A DNA stretch of 58,139 bases from a virus, in the IMG/VR virus record IMGVR_UViG_3300045988_055482, positions 1 through 58,139 of that record; one strand, written 5' to 3'. Numbering within the stretch: position 1 is the stretch's first letter; every line of letters begins with the position of its first letter. Below the pieces are notes generated by a model. That model was not told where the DNA came from and ran no database searches. It saw only the letters and a program-made list of their open reading frames with translations. Both the position numbers and the translations under genes were made by a program. Below are positions 14,719 through 25,066 of the stretch, one piece after another.

Positions 14719-14746
14719 AGTATAACAAAAAAAGAGAGTTTATCAA
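14719..14746 (-). promoter_or_regulatory. Promoter-like element overlapping the terminator (TTGATA-16-TGtTATACT)
   Basis: Minus strand: ttgataaactctctttttttgttatact. The -35 lies in the terminator hairpin. Confidence 0.35.
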
Positions 14747-14751
14747 CTCTC
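14727..14751 (-). terminator. Rho-independent terminator inside the late arm
   Basis: Minus strand reads gagagtt-gata-aactctc followed by TTTTTTT. Confidence 0.6.
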
Positions 14752-19277: not shown

Positions 19278-19911
19278 AAACAATATCTCCTCCAGTGTAA
19301 CTAAAGTCTTCCTCAATTCCAACAGAAGGTGCTACATTGGAGAAACTCTCCGTTACTGGAATTGTTGTACCATTCATAGCTAGACATATAGGGCATGTGT
19401 GTGAATCCCCTACACAGTTCCAAGTCTTTAAAATACTATTCTCTGTGATGATTTCAAATAGCTTAGCACTCTCTACAGAGGCTTTCTCAATACCCATTTG
19501 AATTTCACTTAAGGCAAGCCTTTCAAGATTACTCCTGAAGTCCTTAATAATATCTTCTAGCTTCACAGTATCCACAGAATCAATAACTTTTGCTCTTAGG
19601 TCTTGTGCATGAGCTTCAAGTATCTCCTTAAGCCTACCAAAGTTGCTTCTTGCAAAAGCTGAGGTATTAACACCATTTCTAAGCTCAATAACCTCTTCTG
19701 GCATTAGGTCAACACCTAAAGCATCCAAGATATAGTCAATTTCACCAAGGAACACCTCAGAGTACATATCCACAAGATAGCCAATCAAAGCATTCTCAGC
19801 ACTTTCATAATCACCCATATTAACCACAGAGATTACAAAGCCCTCAAGTAGCTCTGTTATCTCAGCATAGTGCTTTTCAAACAAATCCTCTCTAGGGCTA
19901 TGTGATGCCAT
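19231..19911 (-). CDS. Head morphogenesis protein (SPP1 gp7 / Mu F-like)
   Basis: C-terminal signature WNCVGDSHTCPICLAMNG...YAHPRCRCW. Confidence 0.7.
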   Translation of the reverse strand: MASHSPREDLFEKHYAEITELLEGFVISVVNMGDYESAENALIGYLVDMYSEVFLGEIDYILDALGVDLMPEEVIELRNGVNTSAFARSNFGRLKEILEAHAQDLRAKVIDSVDTVKLEDIIKDFRSNLERLALSEIQMGIEKASVESAKLFEIITENSILKTWNCVGDSHTCPICLAMNGTTIPVTESFSNVAPSVGIEEDFSYTGGDIVYAHPRCRCWVTYSKA

Positions 19912-20270
19912 TATTTCTCTCCAAAAAGTTCATCTAGCTTAGCTTTAGTGTAGTTCTTAAGCTCATCAATACCATCTTTGGTATCGTGATTCACATTCAC
20001 AGTAGTCTGAGTAGCCTTACCTTCAATACGGTCAGCCCATTCTTTACGCTCATAGCTATCCTCAAACGAAGCCATAATCTGCAACATAGCATTTCTAGCC
20101 ACAGGAGTACAAGGAGGAATTTGTGAATACACTTCAAATCCTACTTCACTAAGCAGTGTCTCATCAACATCAATAAGACCCCAACGCATTTGGTAAAGAG
20201 TGAGTGACTTTTCATCAAGCAAACTCAATTCTCTCATAGTCTCTGAATATAGTTTAGATTTTGTAGCCAT
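19911..20270 (-). CDS. Hypothetical protein, possible small terminase
   Basis: 119-aa ORF, the first protein gene after the tRNA cluster. Position only. Confidence 0.3.
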   Translation of the reverse strand: MATKSKLYSETMRELSLLDEKSLTLYQMRWGLIDVDETLLSEVGFEVYSQIPPCTPVARNAMLQIMASFEDSYERKEWADRIEGKATQTTVNVNHDTKDGIDELKNYTKAKLDELFGEK

Positions 20271-20296
20271 TATCTTTACCTTTCCAATAAATCAAA

Positions 20297-20369
20297 TACA
20301 CCCTCCAAGACTTGAACTCGGAGTATAGGAGTAGAAATCCTATGTGTTATCCAGTTACACCAAGGGTGC
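20297..20369 (-). tRNA. tRNA-Arg (anticodon UCU)
   Basis: Hand-folded 73-nt cloverleaf: GCACCCT TG GTGT AACTGGATA ACAC A TAGGA TTTCTAC TCCTA TACT CCGAG TTCAAGT CTTGG AGGGTGT A. There is a G1-U72 wobble. Confidence 0.8.
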
Positions 20370-20426
20370 ATATGGTGGGTATAACCACCATTTAGTATTC
20401 ACAGAAATGTGATACCTATCAACCAA

Positions 20427-20467
20427 AGTCCCCAGTCGGATTTGAACCAACGAATTATCCAAACACA
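20427..20467 (-). other. 3' half of a split tRNA-like gene (anticodon-stem 3' strand, variable loop, T arm, acceptor 3' strand, discriminator)
   Basis: Minus strand: tgtgtt TGGAT AATTC GTTGG TTCAAAT CCGAC TGGGGAC T. It begins 2 nt after tRNA-Cys. Its acceptor strand pairs 7/7 (one G-U) with the 5' half at 21287. Confidence 0.65.
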
Positions 20468-20469
20468 TA

Positions 20470-20542
20470 AGAGCGTAGAGGGATTCGAACCCCCGATAGC
20501 AAGGTTGCAGCTTGCGACCTTAGACCACTTGGCTATACGCTC
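20470..20542 (-). tRNA. tRNA-Cys (anticodon GCA)
   Basis: Hand-folded 73 nt: GAGCGTA TA GCCA AGTGGTCTA AGGT C GCAAG CTGCAAC CTTGC TATC GGGGG TTCGAAT CCCTC TACGCTC T. The U73 discriminator fits Cys identity. Confidence 0.85.
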
Positions 20543-21204
20543 AATATGAATGACTTAATCTCTTTACTCTTAATAGGTAAACCTCTTTTAGCTAACCACT
20601 TCCTATAGGCATTATCACTAATACCATACTTAGAAGCTAACTTTACAAGAGATTCTTTAGATAATAGGTCTTTGATAAGGTCTTCCCTAGTAGGTATATT
20701 CTTTGACTTTTCAGGTTTAAAACATTTAAGACATAGATTACCACTAGTTAAAACACCACAGATAGTACATTTATTCCTCTTGTTAGTCCACAAAGTAGAC
20801 TCTTTTGGAACATACTCTTCACCTTTGACGTACTTACTAGGAAGCATATCATTGTCAGTGATTCTGTAGTTAGACCTAGACCATTTTGTCAGTTCACCAG
20901 CTGTATTTATGTTATTCTGATTATCTTTAGGTGTAACCCTTCTGAGATTCAGATAATGATTATTCCGTTTATTACCATCAATATGGTCAATTTGTAGCCC
21001 ATCAGACTTATCAAAGTGACCTATATTTACCCAATAGCTTAGAAAATGAGCTGACCTATGAATAGTCTTACCGTTAACTCTAAGTCTATACATGGCATAA
21101 CCCCTTGTATTGATATAAGGCTTAAGTTTCTTAAGTCTATTACCAAATACACTGAATAACTCACCATACTCGTTTACAACATAATTTTCATTATAGTGAT
21201 ACAC
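20533..21204 (-). CDS. HNH homing endonuclease (free-standing)
   Basis: HIDGNKRNNHYLNLRRVTPKDNQNN motif, zinc ribbon CTICGV...CLKC, C-terminal HTH LASKYGISDNAYRKWLAKRG. GTG start. The last 10 nt, including the TAG stop, are the first 10 nt of tRNA-Cys. Confidence 0.85.
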   Translation of the reverse strand: MYHYNENYVVNEYGELFSVFGNRLKKLKPYINTRGYAMYRLRVNGKTIHRSAHFLSYWVNIGHFDKSDGLQIDHIDGNKRNNHYLNLRRVTPKDNQNNINTAGELTKWSRSNYRITDNDMLPSKYVKGEEYVPKESTLWTNKRNKCTICGVLTSGNLCLKCFKPEKSKNIPTREDLIKDLLSKESLVKLASKYGISDNAYRKWLAKRGLPIKSKEIKSFILSV

Positions 21205-21250
21205 TGCAACTGACCTCTATACTCTATTATTTGATTAAGTCCTTTATTTT

Positions 21251-21287
21251 TGTGTTTGGATAGCCTTACCAGCTTGGCTATGAGGAC
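21251..21287 (-). other. 5' half of a split tRNA-like gene (acceptor 5' strand, D arm, anticodon-stem 5' strand)
   Basis: Minus strand: GTCCTCA TA GCCA AGCTGGTA AGGC T ATCCA aacaca. It starts directly after the terminator U-tract. Confidence 0.65.
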
Positions 21288-21318
21288 AAAAACCTATGGA
21301 GCTAACCAACCCCATAGG
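21288..21318 (-). terminator. Rho-independent terminator
   Basis: Minus strand: cctatgggg-ttggttag-ctccatagg followed by TTTTT. Confidence 0.7.
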
Positions 21319-21369
21319 AAAAATTTCAAAGGAGGCGATTCTTATAGCGGAACTATAATGCACACAATG

Positions 21370-21398
21370 ATTATATCACAGAAATTATACTTTGTCAA
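21370..21398 (-). promoter_or_regulatory. Consensus sigma-A promoter (TTGACA-17-TGaTATAAT) at the head of the late arm
   Basis: Minus strand: tttgacaaagtataatttctgtgatataat. The -35 sits in the last codons of the resolvase gene. Confidence 0.65.
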
Positions 21399-21834
21399 AT
21401 GAACCAAGTCCAATTAGTATAGCTTCTGCTTCATCATCATTCTTCACAGAATATCCTTTGACAACACAGAGGTCTATAGCTTTCTTCTTTGCCTCTGCTC
21501 TTTTACCATTCAGGTGAAATTGTTTTCTCCAACTCGATGGAGTAACAAATACAATCTCAGAGTCTTTTACCTCTCTGATAACCATACCCTGAACAATACC
21601 TAGCATCACAAGAGTTTTCTGGTTTGAGATAACTTTCAATTCCTCAATTATGACTTTATCAAACTTCCCATACTTTTCACACAGGAGTCTAATAAACTCT
21701 GCCATATACTGACCTCTCACCAAAAAGTCTTTGTCATTTGACTTAATTGTGCCAAAATCCACAACAGAACCTGATTTTATCACACAGTATCCAGAACTCT
21801 TTGTAGACAAATCTAGTGCCAAAACTTTAACCAT
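21385..21834 (-). CDS. RuvC-like Holliday junction resolvase (Gram-positive phage type)
   Basis: N-terminal VLALDLSTKSSGY catalytic Asp motif and C-terminal NDDEAEAILIG. Confidence 0.8.
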   Translation of the reverse strand: MVKVLALDLSTKSSGYCVIKSGSVVDFGTIKSNDKDFLVRGQYMAEFIRLLCEKYGKFDKVIIEELKVISNQKTLVMLGIVQGMVIREVKDSEIVFVTPSSWRKQFHLNGKRAEAKKKAIDLCVVKGYSVKNDDEAEAILIGLGSFDKV

Positions 21835-21840
21835 GAATTA

Positions 21841-21869
21841 ATTATACCACACAGAGAAAATAATGTCAA
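21841..21869 (-). promoter_or_regulatory. Consensus promoter (TTGACA-17-TGgTATAAT) ending 6 nt before the resolvase ATG
   Basis: Minus strand: attgacattattttctctgtgtggtataattaattcATG. There is no SD between the -10 and the ATG. Confidence 0.6.
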
Positions 21870-21878
21870 TACTAAAAA

Positions 21879-22023
21879 GGTTATTGTCCCCATAAAATGT
21901 TTGCAACTTGTTTTGCGAACATTTTTTTGATGGACTTTAACTTAGTGAGATAGTCTCCTGTGAATATAAATATAATTAGTATAGAGTATATATATTATAA
22001 AGTATTCTGGTTATATCCACCAA
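21879..22023. repeat. Left copy of an inverted regulatory cassette (partner 29697-29850)
   Basis: Block 1, 21879-21931, matches the reverse complement of 29798-29850 at 52/53. Block 2, about 21988-22023, matches the reverse complement of about 29697-29733 with 1 mismatch. The centre has diverged. Confidence 0.85.
21894..21925. promoter_or_regulatory. 13-6-13 palindromic operator-like site
   Basis: aaaatgtttgcaa-cttgtt-ttgcgaacatttt, arms matching 12/13. The same site occurs at 29804-29835. Confidence 0.5.
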
Positions 22024-22145
22024 TTTGTTACATACTCTAATATCCTTATATCATTCTGTGTGATATATTTCCTTGATATACTGTGATATACTTAGCTATA
22101 TATAATATATATACTAGTATAAAGTATATAGTATATTAGGACTAG

Positions 22146-22162
22146 GGTTATTTCCACCAAAA
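22146..22162 (+). repeat. Third copy of the GGTTATTTCCACCAAAA box
   Basis: Identical to the reverse complement of 29696-29712. A variant, GGTTATATCCACCAA, sits at 22009-22023. It resembles a DnaA box at 7/9. Confidence 0.6.
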
Positions 22163-22196
22163 GGTTACATAATAGAAAATTTTTTACCCATACTCC

Positions 22197-22225
22197 TTGA
22201 CTTAATCAGCTCTGTGTGATATAAT
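22197..22225 (+). promoter_or_regulatory. Early promoter (TTGACT-17-TGaTATAAT)
   Basis: ccttgacttaatcagctctgtgtgatataat, 19 nt upstream of the ATG at 22244. Confidence 0.65.
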
Positions 22226-22243
22226 CTTCTGTGAGGTAGATTT

Positions 22244-23191
22244 ATGGACACAATTATTTTATGGCACTTTAACCAAGAGAAGAAAAAAAGAGGTACTATA
22301 TTTGCCACAAAAGATGAGTACCTATTAGCGCTAAAATTTGAACCAAGAGAACAAGTAGACCAAGACCTAAAGAGGCAAATAAAAGCCTTTATCAAATCAA
22401 GATATAAAGTATCTGTGCACCAACTTACCTACAGAGAAAAGCCACTTTATGCTGTGTGTAAGAAATTTGGAGGTGTAGAGGCTCTCTGTGAACAGCTAAA
22501 TATTAGTCAAGATATTCTGTGTGACCTTAGCTTTAACTTTATCAATCCACACATTAAGTCACAGCTCCTGATAGACTATTTGCTTCCTGTGCTAACTGAC
22601 CAAGAGTTTGCTAATTGGTTCTATTCCACAGTGTATAATTTATACAATGACACAAGAGAACCTTTAGTTTTCTTACCAGAGACTCTTCCACAGAGTTTCT
22701 ATGAGTGGTTAGCCAAAGATAGTAGGTACACAAAGCTAAATCCATTTATCACAGGTAAGTCAATTCCTAGTGGTATGATGATAGGTGATTATATCTATGA
22801 ACACAGAGATGAGTATAAACAAGTATATAATTCCTATTCCTATATGCTGAAAGACTATATACAGAGCCTAAGTGGTAAAGAGCCTATATACATTACCAAT
22901 ATCAAGCAGAGAACCACAGTAAGGCTTAAGAAGTATGGAGTTCTTATATCTCACAAGCTAGAGTCTATGGGGATTTACTATAAGTCCTATATTGGTATGT
23001 TCAATACCACATCACCTAAAATGACTAAGTATATAAAAACAATAGCTCAAGAGGTTGGATATGACCCTTATGATATGCTATATACAATAGTCCTTAACTC
23101 TGTAGAGTATTATGCCAAGAAGCCTAGTCATAAGCGTAATGTTACCACAGAATATCTAAGAGAACAGAAAATACACCTAAAGAGACTATAG
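22244..23191 (+). CDS. Early protein of unknown function
   Basis: 315-aa ORF directly downstream of the early promoter. RBS GAGGTAG. Confidence 0.65.
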   Translation: MDTIILWHFNQEKKKRGTIFATKDEYLLALKFEPREQVDQDLKRQIKAFIKSRYKVSVHQLTYREKPLYAVCKKFGGVEALCEQLNISQDILCDLSFNFINPHIKSQLLIDYLLPVLTDQEFANWFYSTVYNLYNDTREPLVFLPETLPQSFYEWLAKDSRYTKLNPFITGKSIPSGMMIGDYIYEHRDEYKQVYNSYSYMLKDYIQSLSGKEPIYITNIKQRTTVRLKKYGVLISHKLESMGIYYKSYIGMFNTTSPKMTKYIKTIAQEVGYDPYDMLYTIVLNSVEYYAKKPSHKRNVTTEYLREQKIHLKRL

Positions 23192-23214
23192 GATTATTCC
23201 TATGGTCTTTTATT
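23186..23214 (+). terminator. Weak terminator-like hairpin
   Basis: ctatagga-ttat-tcctatgg followed by tctttt. Confidence 0.4.
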
Positions 23215-23380
23215 ATTAGTAACATGTTTTTAAGTAAAATACTTGAGTGGTGAATGGGTGTATGGTAGTGTAGAGTTACTAACACGTTTTTTAATCAATT
23301 AGTTTGTTGGTGAATAGGCAAATTTTAGACATACCCATATATACTTGTTTTTTAATCGACCTTGTTCATTACCTATTTTT
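23215..23380 (+). repeat. Three degenerate direct repeats with 60-bp period
   Basis: GTAACATGTTTTTAAG...GGTGAATGGGTG (23218), CTAACACGTTTTTTAAT...GGTGAATAGGCA (23278), ACTTGTTTTTTAATCG (about 23342). A related GTAACACGTTTTTGA occurs at 41689. Confidence 0.6.
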
Positions 23381-23719
23381 AAATGCAATCTGTACCAATA
23401 ATACCTATAATATAATTGTATAATACCTAGCAATTTTAGACACATTGTCCAATTATTCTAAACACCTATAAATAGACAATATTGAACAATGTGTACAAAA
23501 TTGTACAGGGTATCCAAAAAAGTTTACATAAGTAAACCAACCTTCCTAAAACAATAAATTTCCCTATAATAACCTTACCTATATACATATATAAACTGTA
23601 CCCATACAATTTCTAAAAAATCATACTAAAATATAAAGACATATATTTTACTTAAATATTCCAGACTATAAAATCATAAAAATATTTCTTAAATTATATC
23701 ATTTTATATCATTTAACTC

Positions 23720-23747
23720 TTGACATCTACCTTAAAAATGGTATAAT
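23720..23747 (+). promoter_or_regulatory. Early promoter (TTGACA-16-TGgTATAAT)
   Basis: cttgacatctaccttaaaaatggtataat. Confidence 0.6.
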
Positions 23748-23797
23748 AGACTTATAGAAAATATATCACAAATATATCAAATAATGATAAAAAACTC

Positions 23798-23826
23798 TTT
23801 ACAAAATGATATAATTGTGCTATAAT
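23798..23826 (+). promoter_or_regulatory. Early promoter (TTTACA-17-TGcTATAAT)
   Basis: ctttacaaaatgatataattgtgctataat, in tandem with the promoter 78 bp upstream. Confidence 0.55.
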
Positions 23827-24037
23827 TAAACTATAGAAAACGTGAGACAATCATATCAGACTATGCTTTCAGTTAAAAGCCTCATCTATAGCATGAAAAA
23901 CTTTTCTGAACTAGCTTGAAACATTGTAAAATTCAGACATTCTATAATACAAGTATATCAAGATTGAAAATATATAGCGCTTGTGTTCATTCATTAATAA
24001 ATAAAATCAAAGGAAAAGGTTAAATAGGTATATAACC

Positions 24038-25066
24038 ATGACAAAGATAGAAAAAGTTGATTTTAAAGGACAATTTTCATATAAAGTCCTAGTTGAGAAA
24101 TATTTTGATATTGAATTTATCATAGGGGAAAACGCACCTAAACTATCTAAACAGCTTTCAAAAGCTGGTAAAGATTACACAAATGAAGAGCTACAAGCTT
24201 TTCAAGAGCTTCTAAATGCTGTTTTTAATGGTGAAAAAGAGGAAAGCTATAGATTTAAATTCACTAACATTTTACCAAACTATGAAGAAATTGACGATTG
24301 GGCTTTTGATGGCTCTTGTAATTCTCAAGGAGGATGTGGACAAGCTACAAGTTTTGTATTAAATACACTAGAAGAAGCTAGATACTGTTATATTTATGAT
24401 ACATGGGATGACCCTTCAGCAAGATTTTACTATGTTCAAGACCGCAATGGAGTTCTTGGTGTTGCTGACATCTATTGTGATAATGGACATGGATATTATC
24501 TTGCTTCTCAGATTCTTCTTTGTGTTGCTTATGGTAAGAAATTAGCTGACTTTGTGAAGTATGAAGATAAAATTGTATATATGACAAATGATTCTGGTTA
24601 CTGGTCAAACCTGTCAGCAGATAGCTATAGTCATTATGTAACTGGTGAAATTGAACCTATTGAACCTTATGAATGGGTTATTAATGATTTTAACGAATCA
24701 ATTGGATTGGTATATAGTGAAAATTTAGGAGAATACATAGATACAGATAATGAAAACTATGTGTATTGTATTAACATTGAAGATTATGAGTACTACGATA
24801 AAATTACAGTTTGTGACTATTGTTGTGAATGTGTAAGTTTTAGAGGTGATTTTCTTAAAACAAATGATGGAACTATCTTCTGTTCTGATGATTGTGCTTC
24901 TATTGACTATATTTACTCAGATTATGATGAAGAATGGATTTATCGTGAAGAGGCTTCTGAGTGTGCTGACTGCTATAATATCTTTATTTCAGAGAATGGT
25001 GCATGGGGTTCTGATGATGAATTTTATTGTCATGACTGTATACATGACCACTTAGAAAATGACTAG
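24038..25066 (+). CDS. Early protein, paralog A of an unknown family, with C-terminal Cys-rich zinc-ribbon-like repeats
   Basis: Shares NAPKLSKQLSKAG..YT.EE.Q.F and DWAFDGSCN blocks with ORF 26875..28428. C-terminus reads CDYCCECV...FCSDDC...CADCYN...YCHDCIHD. Confidence 0.7.
   Translation: MTKIEKVDFKGQFSYKVLVEKYFDIEFIIGENAPKLSKQLSKAGKDYTNEELQAFQELLNAVFNGEKEESYRFKFTNILPNYEEIDDWAFDGSCNSQGGCGQATSFVLNTLEEARYCYIYDTWDDPSARFYYVQDRNGVLGVADIYCDNGHGYYLASQILLCVAYGKKLADFVKYEDKIVYMTNDSGYWSNLSADSYSHYVTGEIEPIEPYEWVINDFNESIGLVYSENLGEYIDTDNENYVYCINIEDYEYYDKITVCDYCCECVSFRGDFLKTNDGTIFCSDDCASIDYIYSDYDEEWIYREEASECADCYNIFISENGAWGSDDEFYCHDCIHDHLEND

Follow-up and report, generated by a model that had tools for sequence, protein, structure and literature searches.

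The DNA analyzed here, which we call the window, is the whole 58,139-nt stretch of IMG/VR virus record IMGVR_UViG_3300045988_055482, and the element in question is a consensus promoter on its minus strand (21398-21370) together with the leader that follows it down to position 21288. We propose, with a probability of roughly 0.55, that this region represents the promoter and the structured 5' leader of the first leftward operon of the phage, which would comprise tRNA-Cys, tRNA-Arg(UCU) and the packaging genes. The proposal is based on the sequence anatomy, conservation, covariation and synteny of the region, from which we infer the transcription start site, a partial termination, a release of the leader by RNase P and any role that the released RNA may have. 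The coordinates of all features are collected in the table below.

The promoter overlaps the last codons of a RuvC-like gene, matches the consensus in all 12 hexamer positions and additionally carries the TG of an extended -10 element. A search of the window for TTGACA-N14-TGNTATAAT with at most one mismatch identified five sites, compared with a mean of 0.13 in dinucleotide shuffles, and none of 100 shuffles reached five. The intergenic promoters that match at least 11 of the 12 hexamer positions and have the TG are also five in number, two of them leftward and three rightward, and all are located within 21370-23826, which is the divergent control region of the genome; a sixth match of this kind, at 2540-2512, falls inside the tape-measure open reading frame (ORF).

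For the comparative analysis, relatives were retrieved with the RuvC-like protein. The search returned 43 IMG/VR loci, on contigs of up to ~65 kb, whose best-matching segments are 59-97% identical to the query; in 42 of the 43 loci the sequence continues downstream of the RuvC-like gene, and these 42 form the comparison set. The leaders were assigned to groups A (the window and L001-L005), B and B' (L006-L015 and L043), C (L016), C' (L017 and L031), D (L018-L040, with L038 divergent) and E (L041). The motif TTGACA-17-TGnTAnnnT can be observed at the 3' end of the RuvC-like gene in all 42 relatives, with a spacer of 16 nt in L041, and the -10 hexamer agrees with TATAAT in 5 or 6 positions in 41 of them and in 4 positions in L040. 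The gene order is maintained as well: the RuvC-like gene, the promoter, the leader, tRNA-Cys and tRNA-Arg follow one another, with tRNA-Cys located after the promoter in 42/42 relatives, tRNA-Arg(UCU) also found in at least 28 within the stretch fetched, and the first late ORF beginning 20-25 nt past tRNA-Arg in most of them. The leader is 77-125 nt long among the relatives, with the exception of one deletion variant of 26 nt (L029).

Initiation near 21363 would give a 76-nt RNA ending at the U-run at 21288. The fold, computed on a 79-nt RNA, predicts a 5' hairpin (HP1), a single-stranded pyrimidine-rich stretch that we named the CU box, and a terminal hairpin (HP2) that begins ~45 nt past the predicted start. 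The leaders are more stable than shuffled sequence, with z values of -2.2 to -5.2. The 11-mer ATTATAGTTCC of HP1 is common to groups A and B. HP2 is considerably better conserved as a structure: the ten distinct leaders compared from groups A-C form nine consensus pairs in 100% of the alignment cells, three pairs show compensatory double changes, and 0/500 shuffles reach the observed covariation score, whereas slid controls pair in 36-54% of the cells. In group D, this position is occupied by another hairpin of equal stability. Outside these groups, the leader of L041, the most distant relative, was observed to be without a stable terminal hairpin; in the same locus, an additional tRNA at 1742-1807 was found by Rfam and not by ARAGORN.

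The most conserved part of the leader is the CU box, in which CTCCTT is invariant in 13 of the 13 distinct leaders of groups A-C, where it is the sole sequence-invariant part; its flanks vary. Exact runs of 6-12 nt to the 3' tail of the host 16S rRNA, GAUCACCUCCUUUCU, can be found in every group, the longest (12 nt) in L002. According to the predicted folds, the box is unpaired in groups A and B, whereas group D has it once within a hairpin loop and a second time in the 3' tail, and in groups C and C' it would pair with a GAGGA close by. Because every group matches the 16S tail and the run shared with host boxA elements (see below) is confined to group A, the family-wide feature of the leader is a look-alike of the anti-Shine-Dalgarno (anti-SD) sequence. 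With Rfam, only tRNAs were found at the gathering threshold, and nothing credible was matched at E<=10 for the leader or at E<=1 for five relatives. A covariance model of the CU box and the hairpin identified exactly one copy per genome in groups A-C, always at this place; groups D and E, the other phage loci and 9 host rRNA operon (rrn) loci contained none.

Two further interpretations of this sequence were rejected. If AAAGGAGG on the plus strand served as the Shine-Dalgarno (SD) sequence of a gene, a start codon would be expected at a workable distance; there is none in group A, and in group B the sole TTG is only 2 nt from GGAG. A switching antiterminator structure could be formed by pairing of UUAUAG with CUAUGG in group A, and this pairing is impossible in group B.

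The earlier note on this DNA had described a perfect TTGACA-17-TGaTATAAT promoter, a hairpin followed by UUUUU at 21318-21288, an RNA of ~76 nt carrying an anti-SD sequence, and a downstream arm of ~31 kb with packaging, head, tail and lysis genes, and all of these features were found again in the present analysis. Three corrections have to be made. The note had seen no other consensus promoter at the head of the arm; there is, however, a perfect promoter upstream (21869-21841) and a good extended -10 promoter within the arm (14746-14719). Moreover, the U-run borders directly on the 5' 25 nt of a tRNA-Cys gene and not on a late gene.

Features of the leader region, the tRNA region and the leftward arm of the window
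Feature	Position	Strand	Description
Sigma-A promoter	21370-21398	minus	TTGACA 21398-21393; 17-nt spacer ending TGa; TATAAT 21375-21370 (TGaTATAAT 21378-21370)
Predicted transcription start	21363 (±2 nt)	minus	7 nt past the -10 hexamer, from promoter geometry
5' hairpin HP1	21342-21358	minus	UUAUAGU-UCC-GCUAUAA, 7 bp, predicted fold
CU box CGCCUCCUUUG	21327-21337	minus	Single-stranded in the predicted fold; core CUCCUU 21334-21329
Terminal hairpin HP2	21293-21318	minus	CCUAUGGGGUU-GGUU-AGCUCCAUAGG; 11 predicted pairs including 2 G-U, -14.6 kcal/mol
U5 run	21288-21292	minus	Putative terminator tail in the window's lineage and linker to tRNA
5' 25 nt of resident tRNA-Cys gene	21263-21287	minus	Acceptor 5' strand and D arm; directly after the U-run
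HNH cassette	20456-21262	minus	807-bp insert replacing the anticodon arm of the resident tRNA-Cys (compared with L001)
12-bp inverted repeats of HNH cassette	21262-21251 and 20467-20456	minus	TATCCAAACACA and TGTGTTTGGATA
HNH endonuclease ORF	21204-20533	minus	Inside the cassette
Intact tRNA-Cys of the cassette	20542-20470	minus	Inside the cassette
3' 26 nt of resident tRNA-Cys gene	20428-20453	minus	T arm and acceptor 3' strand
Cys-Arg spacer (57 nt)	20371-20427	minus	Two hairpins; the second abuts tRNA-Arg
tRNA-Arg (UCU)	20296-20370	minus	From tRNA search
First late ORF (119 aa)	19911-20270	minus	Starts 25 nt past tRNA-Arg; followed by MuF-like gene, large terminase, portal
Upstream unit	21385-21869	minus	Perfect promoter 21869-21841 and full-length RuvC-like resolvase gene 21834-21385
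Terminator and promoter module	14719-14751	minus	GAGAGUU-GAUA-AACUCUC and U7, overlapped by extended -10 promoter TTGATA-16-TGtTATACT
Endolysin	55290-54274	minus	Amidase domain and choline-binding repeats

The distance between the terminal hairpin and tRNA-Cys is short in all of groups A to D (3-7 nt), and the linker is UUUUU in group A, UUUU in group B, UUUAU in group C, GAUAU in group C', UCCCUCU in group D and UUAU in L038. In the window, HP2 has the features of an intrinsic terminator, that is, a stable G+C-containing stem directly followed by a U-run, and is comparable to the terminator at 14751-14726. To score the hairpins we used a terminator index, a heuristic after the formula of d'Aubenton-Carafa et al. 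(1990) that predicts a terminator when the value is positive. The index amounts to 27-30 in group A (~27 in the window), 5-6 in group B, 20 in L014 and 31 in L016, and to -12 in group C' and -34 to -46 in group D. The hairpins of the latter two groups do not score as terminators because their U-run is lost; no other terminator-like site was found in the group D leaders. Groups C' and D account for 24 of the 42 relatives, and in these the promoter, the hairpin and the synteny are nevertheless kept. In the window's lineage, where U5 follows the hairpin, HP2 should stop part of the transcripts, and it is thus probably a leaky terminator that also ends transcripts of the RuvC-like gene.

Every tRNA in the phage family has a closely abutting hairpin on its 5' side. 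The Cys-Arg spacer is near-identical across groups A to C, apart from variation in loop length, and its second hairpin is located 1-4 nt before tRNA-Arg in every group, shows compensatory changes and has no U-run. The last base before the tRNA is U in every hairpin-ended leader and in every Cys-Arg spacer. Since the Cys-Arg spacer also ends in a hairpin before a tRNA without a U-run, the design common to the family is a hairpin set close against the tRNA, and the U-run that would turn it into a terminator is specific to certain lineages, including that of the window. The leader itself is not essential, because L029 (IMGVR_UViG_3300045988_046618, 53.8 kb) keeps the promoter and has lost all but 26 nt of the leader before tRNA-Cys, together with the terminal hairpin and the HNH gene. 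We also considered a promoter within the Cys-Arg spacer (TTGATA ... AATACT). The spacing of the hexamers is 17 nt in group A versus 15 nt in groups B and C, so that the motif would rather represent RNA structure, namely the two hairpins, and a promoter is unlikely. The spacer may be a stable processed RNA.

In the window, the tRNA-Cys gene behind the leader is interrupted. Its 5' part differs from the intact tRNA-Cys of L001 in the D loop only, and its two parts are separated by the HNH cassette, which carries an intact tRNA-Cys of its own. The cassette is absent from L001, L005 and most relatives of groups B and D. L015 has the same cassette at the same position in a different tRNA-Cys allele, variant cassettes with different but still complementary repeats are found in L018 and L038, and further cassettes in L002, L003 and L004. 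The repeats are perfectly complementary in the window, L004, L015, L018 and L038, but not in L002 and L003. From its composition, the cassette looks like a homing endonuclease element that breaks a tRNA gene while supplying a spare copy.

The window is a circular assembly whose ends overlap by 55 nt, and the minus-strand arm consequently runs from 21.4 kb across the junction to 48.07 kb, which amounts to ~31 kb. It encodes the HNH endonuclease, two tRNAs, a MuF-like protein, the large terminase, the portal, an adaptor, the tape measure and lysis genes; replication and nucleotide-metabolism genes are located on the plus-strand arm. Between 21288 and the terminase gene, no promoter with at least 10 of 12 hexamer positions was found. 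As no other promoter thus serves the tRNA, HNH, terminase and portal genes, their transcription would necessarily require read-through of HP2. Further downstream, just ahead of the presumed scaffold and capsid genes, there is a compact module (14751-14719) in which a promoter (14746-14719) overlaps a terminator (14751-14726) with a 7-bp stem of -8.0 kcal/mol and U7. The module is conserved in 50 related loci (L177-L226) with compensatory changes in the stem, and its -35 element, in the variants TTGATA, TTGTCA, TTGCTA, TTGACA and TTGACT, is always located inside the loop of the terminator hairpin. This arrangement suggests that the module closes the tRNA-packaging unit and opens a head-gene unit under host sigma-A, so that transcripts would stop and restart there.

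The second leftward promoter of the control region, 21869-21841, is also perfect and lies 470 bp upstream of the leader promoter on the same strand. The start codon (ATG) of the RuvC-like gene follows the -10 hexamer at a distance of exactly 6 nt, without an SD sequence, in 29 relatives from groups A to D, which predicts a leaderless RuvC-like mRNA.

Taken together, these features would fit the following sequence of events. The host sigma-A RNA polymerase would initiate near 21363 at the consensus extended -10 promoter and transcribe a leader of ~76 nt, in which a 5' hairpin is followed by the exposed CUCCUU sequence and then by a stable terminal hairpin that ends a few nucleotides short of the tRNA; transcripts of the RuvC-like gene would also run into the leader and HP2. 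In the window's lineage, HP2 with its U5 would stop part of the transcripts from both origins alike, and the remaining ones would read through into the tRNA, HNH, terminase and portal genes, until the module 14751-14719 takes over for the head genes. Termination would free a short leader RNA with a protective 3' hairpin, and in relatives with an intact tRNA-Cys the cut by RNase P at the 5' end of the tRNA would free the same RNA. Known small RNAs cut from tRNA precursors include spacer and trailer fragments and the stable RNAs of the T4 tRNA cluster. As in those cases, the phage RNA segment would be co-transcribed with tRNAs, bounded by an RNase P site and provided with a protective hairpin of its own; it differs from them in being a 5' leader with a conserved anti-SD-like box and in that, in some lineages, its 3' end could also arise by termination.

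Several points weigh against this explanation. For a consensus promoter to direct transcription into a terminator is wasteful, unless read-through is under control or the short RNA has a function of its own, and a plain leader does not explain the conserved CUCCUU box. The tRNA that follows the hairpin in the window is split by 0.8 kb, which makes the release by RNase P uncertain here; it would need pairing of tRNA halves ~0.8 kb apart, because the cassette splits tRNA-Cys. In addition, the terminator index is only a heuristic, and the start site, the termination efficiency and the processing are predictions from the sequence.

One alternative is that the short RNA is itself the product. It would be a trans-acting riboregulator of the phage that pairs with host or phage ribosome-binding sites and has the layout of the CiaRH-dependent small RNAs of streptococci (csRNAs), an interpretation that is compatible with the promoter-and-leader explanation and that we consider possible but rather unlikely. 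A trans-acting role of the leader RNA is possible in view of the invariant CU box and its match to the 16S tail, the box being placed in a single-stranded linker in groups A and B and in a hairpin loop or 3' tail in group D; furthermore, the RNA would be transcribed from a perfect-consensus promoter, and its 3' hairpin would stabilise it whatever the route of release. The csRNAs of mitis-group streptococci have this architecture (PMC3091779), and the host of the phage, as judged from an endolysin with choline-binding repeats, is a mitis-group Streptococcus (pneumoniae/mitis/oralis group). csRNA-like sequences have also been reported on streptococcal mobile elements (PMC3091779). The resemblance extends to size (51-202 nt for csRNAs, ~76 nt here) and to two stem-loops around an unpaired anti-SD sequence with a terminator stem-loop at the 3' end (PMC3091779, PMC4507080); the predicted fold reproduces this layout, which is common to groups A and C.

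The features that define csRNAs are, however, lacking in the window. CiaR-activated promoters have the repeat TTTAAG-N5-TTTAAG ending 10 nt upstream of the -10 hexamer (PMC3091779), whereas the sequence upstream of the phage -10 element, TTGACAAAGTATAATTTCTGTGA, has no TTTAAG repeat and carries a -35 TTGACA in its place. The linker GAAUCGCCUCCUUUGAAAUUUUU contains neither a CAU anti-start codon adjacent to the box nor the csRNA nonamer [A/C]UCCUAAA[A/C]; among the phage leaders, only that of L041 has the nonamer, as AUCCUAAAA at its 5' end. The phage leader also differs from csRNAs in being physically joined to a tRNA operon and in the lack of any sequence similarity, and the absence of an Rfam family counts against this alternative as well. 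No specific target was found among the phage start regions, since the duplex energies against all of them correspond to generic SD pairing, and an RNA with an anti-SD sequence would hit the strong SD sequences of the phage itself. The predicted pairing of the box with the adjacent GAGGA in groups C and C' is a further point against it.

A more specific form of this alternative, which we regard as unlikely, is that the leader acts as a phage mimic of the 16S rRNA 3' end. The RNA, ~76-125 nt long and transcribed at a very high level, would be released by termination or by RNase P, would pair in trans through CUCCUU with SD regions in the manner of csRNAs and could damp SD-dependent host translation, for example of competence or defence genes. 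The RuvC-like resolvase, encoded by the first leftward gene and predicted to be leaderless, would escape this damping. In a variant of the same idea, the RNA could serve as a decoy and draw away factors whose target is the 16S 3' tail.

Another alternative is regulated antitermination. In this case the promoter would be constitutive, HP2 with U5 would terminate efficiently early in infection, and an early phage product (Q-like and acting on DNA, N-like and acting on the leader RNA, or binding to RNA polymerase) would allow read-through; we consider this improbable. The earlier note had read the region in this way, as a layout like that of lambda PR'-tR', and had offered a small RNA as an alternative; the latter fits the comparative data better than a Q-type switch. 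What stands of the lambda reading is the layout of promoter, short RNA and terminator, the terminator score in the window's lineage and the obligatory read-through for the tRNA and packaging genes; a late switch of the Q type is not supported, as the terminator is not conserved, no Q family was hit in the ORFs scanned and the arm is not one unit. As in lambda PR'-tR' (6S RNA, Q) and in the Stx phages, where the short RNA StxS arises from a PR'-tR'-like layout (PMC7547250), a constitutive consensus promoter would make a short RNA up to a putative intrinsic terminator some tens of nt on, late genes lie beyond, and the by-product RNA could itself be functional. A -10-like element is likewise present in the early transcribed region of groups A and B: HP1 contains TATAGT at 21357-21352 (~+7 to +12), the type of element that causes sigma-dependent pausing at Q-dependent promoters. 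The concentration of all strong sigma-A promoters at 21.4-23.8 kb, with terminator-like sites on both long arms, and the presence of several early proteins without a recognisable family are also in favour of antitermination.

Nevertheless, the comparative evidence does not agree with such a switch. The U-run and the terminator score are lost in about half of the relatives (groups C' and D), L029 has no hairpin at all, and groups C and D lack the TATAGT that groups A and B share. Because the sequence of the promoter spacer differs between groups, there is no candidate for a Q-binding element. Inspection of the leaders of groups A and B revealed no conserved alternative pairing of the antiterminator kind, and the gene just upstream is a plain RuvC-like resolvase. 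In Pfam and PHROG scans of 44 ORFs of at least 75 aa (36 of the early arm or the control region), no member of a Q, N, sigma, ArpU, RinA or late-activator family was found. Neither is the arm one late operon under a single promoter, given the second promoter 21869-21841 upstream and the module 14751-14719; a polymerase made resistant to terminators at the start of the arm fits poorly with this conserved stop-and-restart module, and the conserved sigma-A-type promoter of the head genes, fused to a conserved terminator, is better explained by termination and restart. It is important to mention that the phage hairpin, unlike that of lambda, is tied to a tRNA gene. Judged by its sequence, the leader region is probably not a lambda-Q-type switch. 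Cis-acting RNA antiterminators such as HK022 put, Bacillus EAR, Tn916 canT and pLS20 conAn (PMC11658703) resemble the leader in that a structured RNA is located just past the main promoter of a long mobile-element operon of Gram-positive bacteria, with terminators downstream. They are, however, larger or differently folded and lie upstream of the terminators that they suppress, whereas the phage leader itself includes the terminator-like hairpin, has no sequence similarity to them and is dispensable in L029.

Finally, it is very improbable that the CU box is a boxA-like loading site for the host factors NusB and NusE (S10), as in rRNA operon leaders or lambda nut sites, by which the leader would raise the processivity of the polymerase across the untranslated tRNA region and along the long operon. 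The two systems have in common a strong extended -10 promoter, a hairpin, a pyrimidine-rich single-stranded box and untranslated stable-RNA genes downstream. In the rrn leaders of mitis-group streptococci that we fetched, the promoter is followed by a hairpin and then by AAAGACCUUUGAAAACUG; the window box shares the 9-nt run CCUUUGAAA with this host leader, in the same hairpin-then-box order, and CUCCUU corresponds to positions 3-8 of the Aquifex boxA. The numbering of U8 and G9 in boxA is consistent with PMC3177189. The identity was rejected because the host rrn boxA, GACCUUUGAAAAC, shares the 9-nt run with group A only and 4-5 nt with the other groups, all of which fit the 16S tail better; in addition, the conserved G at boxA position 2 is absent from the CU box, the phage box is followed by a terminator-like hairpin, and the other long arm has no second copy of the leader motif. 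The complexes of the rrn type mainly counter Rho, and streptococci are not known to have Rho.

Additional observations were made in and around the control region. In group D (for example L020), the perfect inverted repeat CTGATA-TACTAAT-TATCAG encloses the -10 hexamer of the leader promoter, and GGGTT...AACCC flanks the -35 hexamer. Both may be operators, which would suggest that a repressor acts on the promoter in this lineage. Behind the other strong promoters lie the genes of two plus-strand proteins without detectable relatives (23720-25066 and 22197-23217), for neither of which a PDB relative was found by sequence. One of them, of 315 aa, forms a single-gene unit with its own strong terminator; the other, of 342 aa, is acidic and cysteine-rich and is preceded by tandem promoters and a 5' untranslated region of >200 nt. 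A repeat of ~52 nt occurs in inverted orientation at 21881-21932 (plus strand) and 29850-29797 (minus strand), with a 12-bp hairpin followed by seven T, and each copy is positioned such that antisense transcription would be stopped. Between the divergent promoters, the stretch 21940-22190 is AT-rich and contains repeated GTGATATA motifs and a perfect 15-nt inverted repeat (21985-21999 / 22101-22115). The contigs of many relatives end 70-530 nt upstream of the RuvC-like gene, and the physical ends of the genome may therefore fall in this AT-rich stretch.

The nearest isolated phages are those of the Lactococcus P087 group, with 24% identity in the large terminase (tblastn); the region upstream of the terminase in that group has no layout comparable to the promoter, leader and tRNA of the window. 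No close relatives among isolated phages were found by megablast, and blastn gave only a 104-nt match to an endonuclease. The window thus belongs to an uncultured phage family of ~55-65 kb in mitis-group streptococci that is without a close isolate. In this family, the tRNA and packaging genes would depend on one conserved host-type promoter and on a structured leader outside all Rfam families, the most conserved part of which imitates the anti-SD end of 16S rRNA. The putative terminator of the window genome is a lineage-specific form of a general hairpin-before-tRNA design. If read-through is regulated, the region would represent an unusual late switch for a streptococcal phage, and should the leader RNA have a role in trans, the phage would possess an equivalent of the csRNA regulators of the host.

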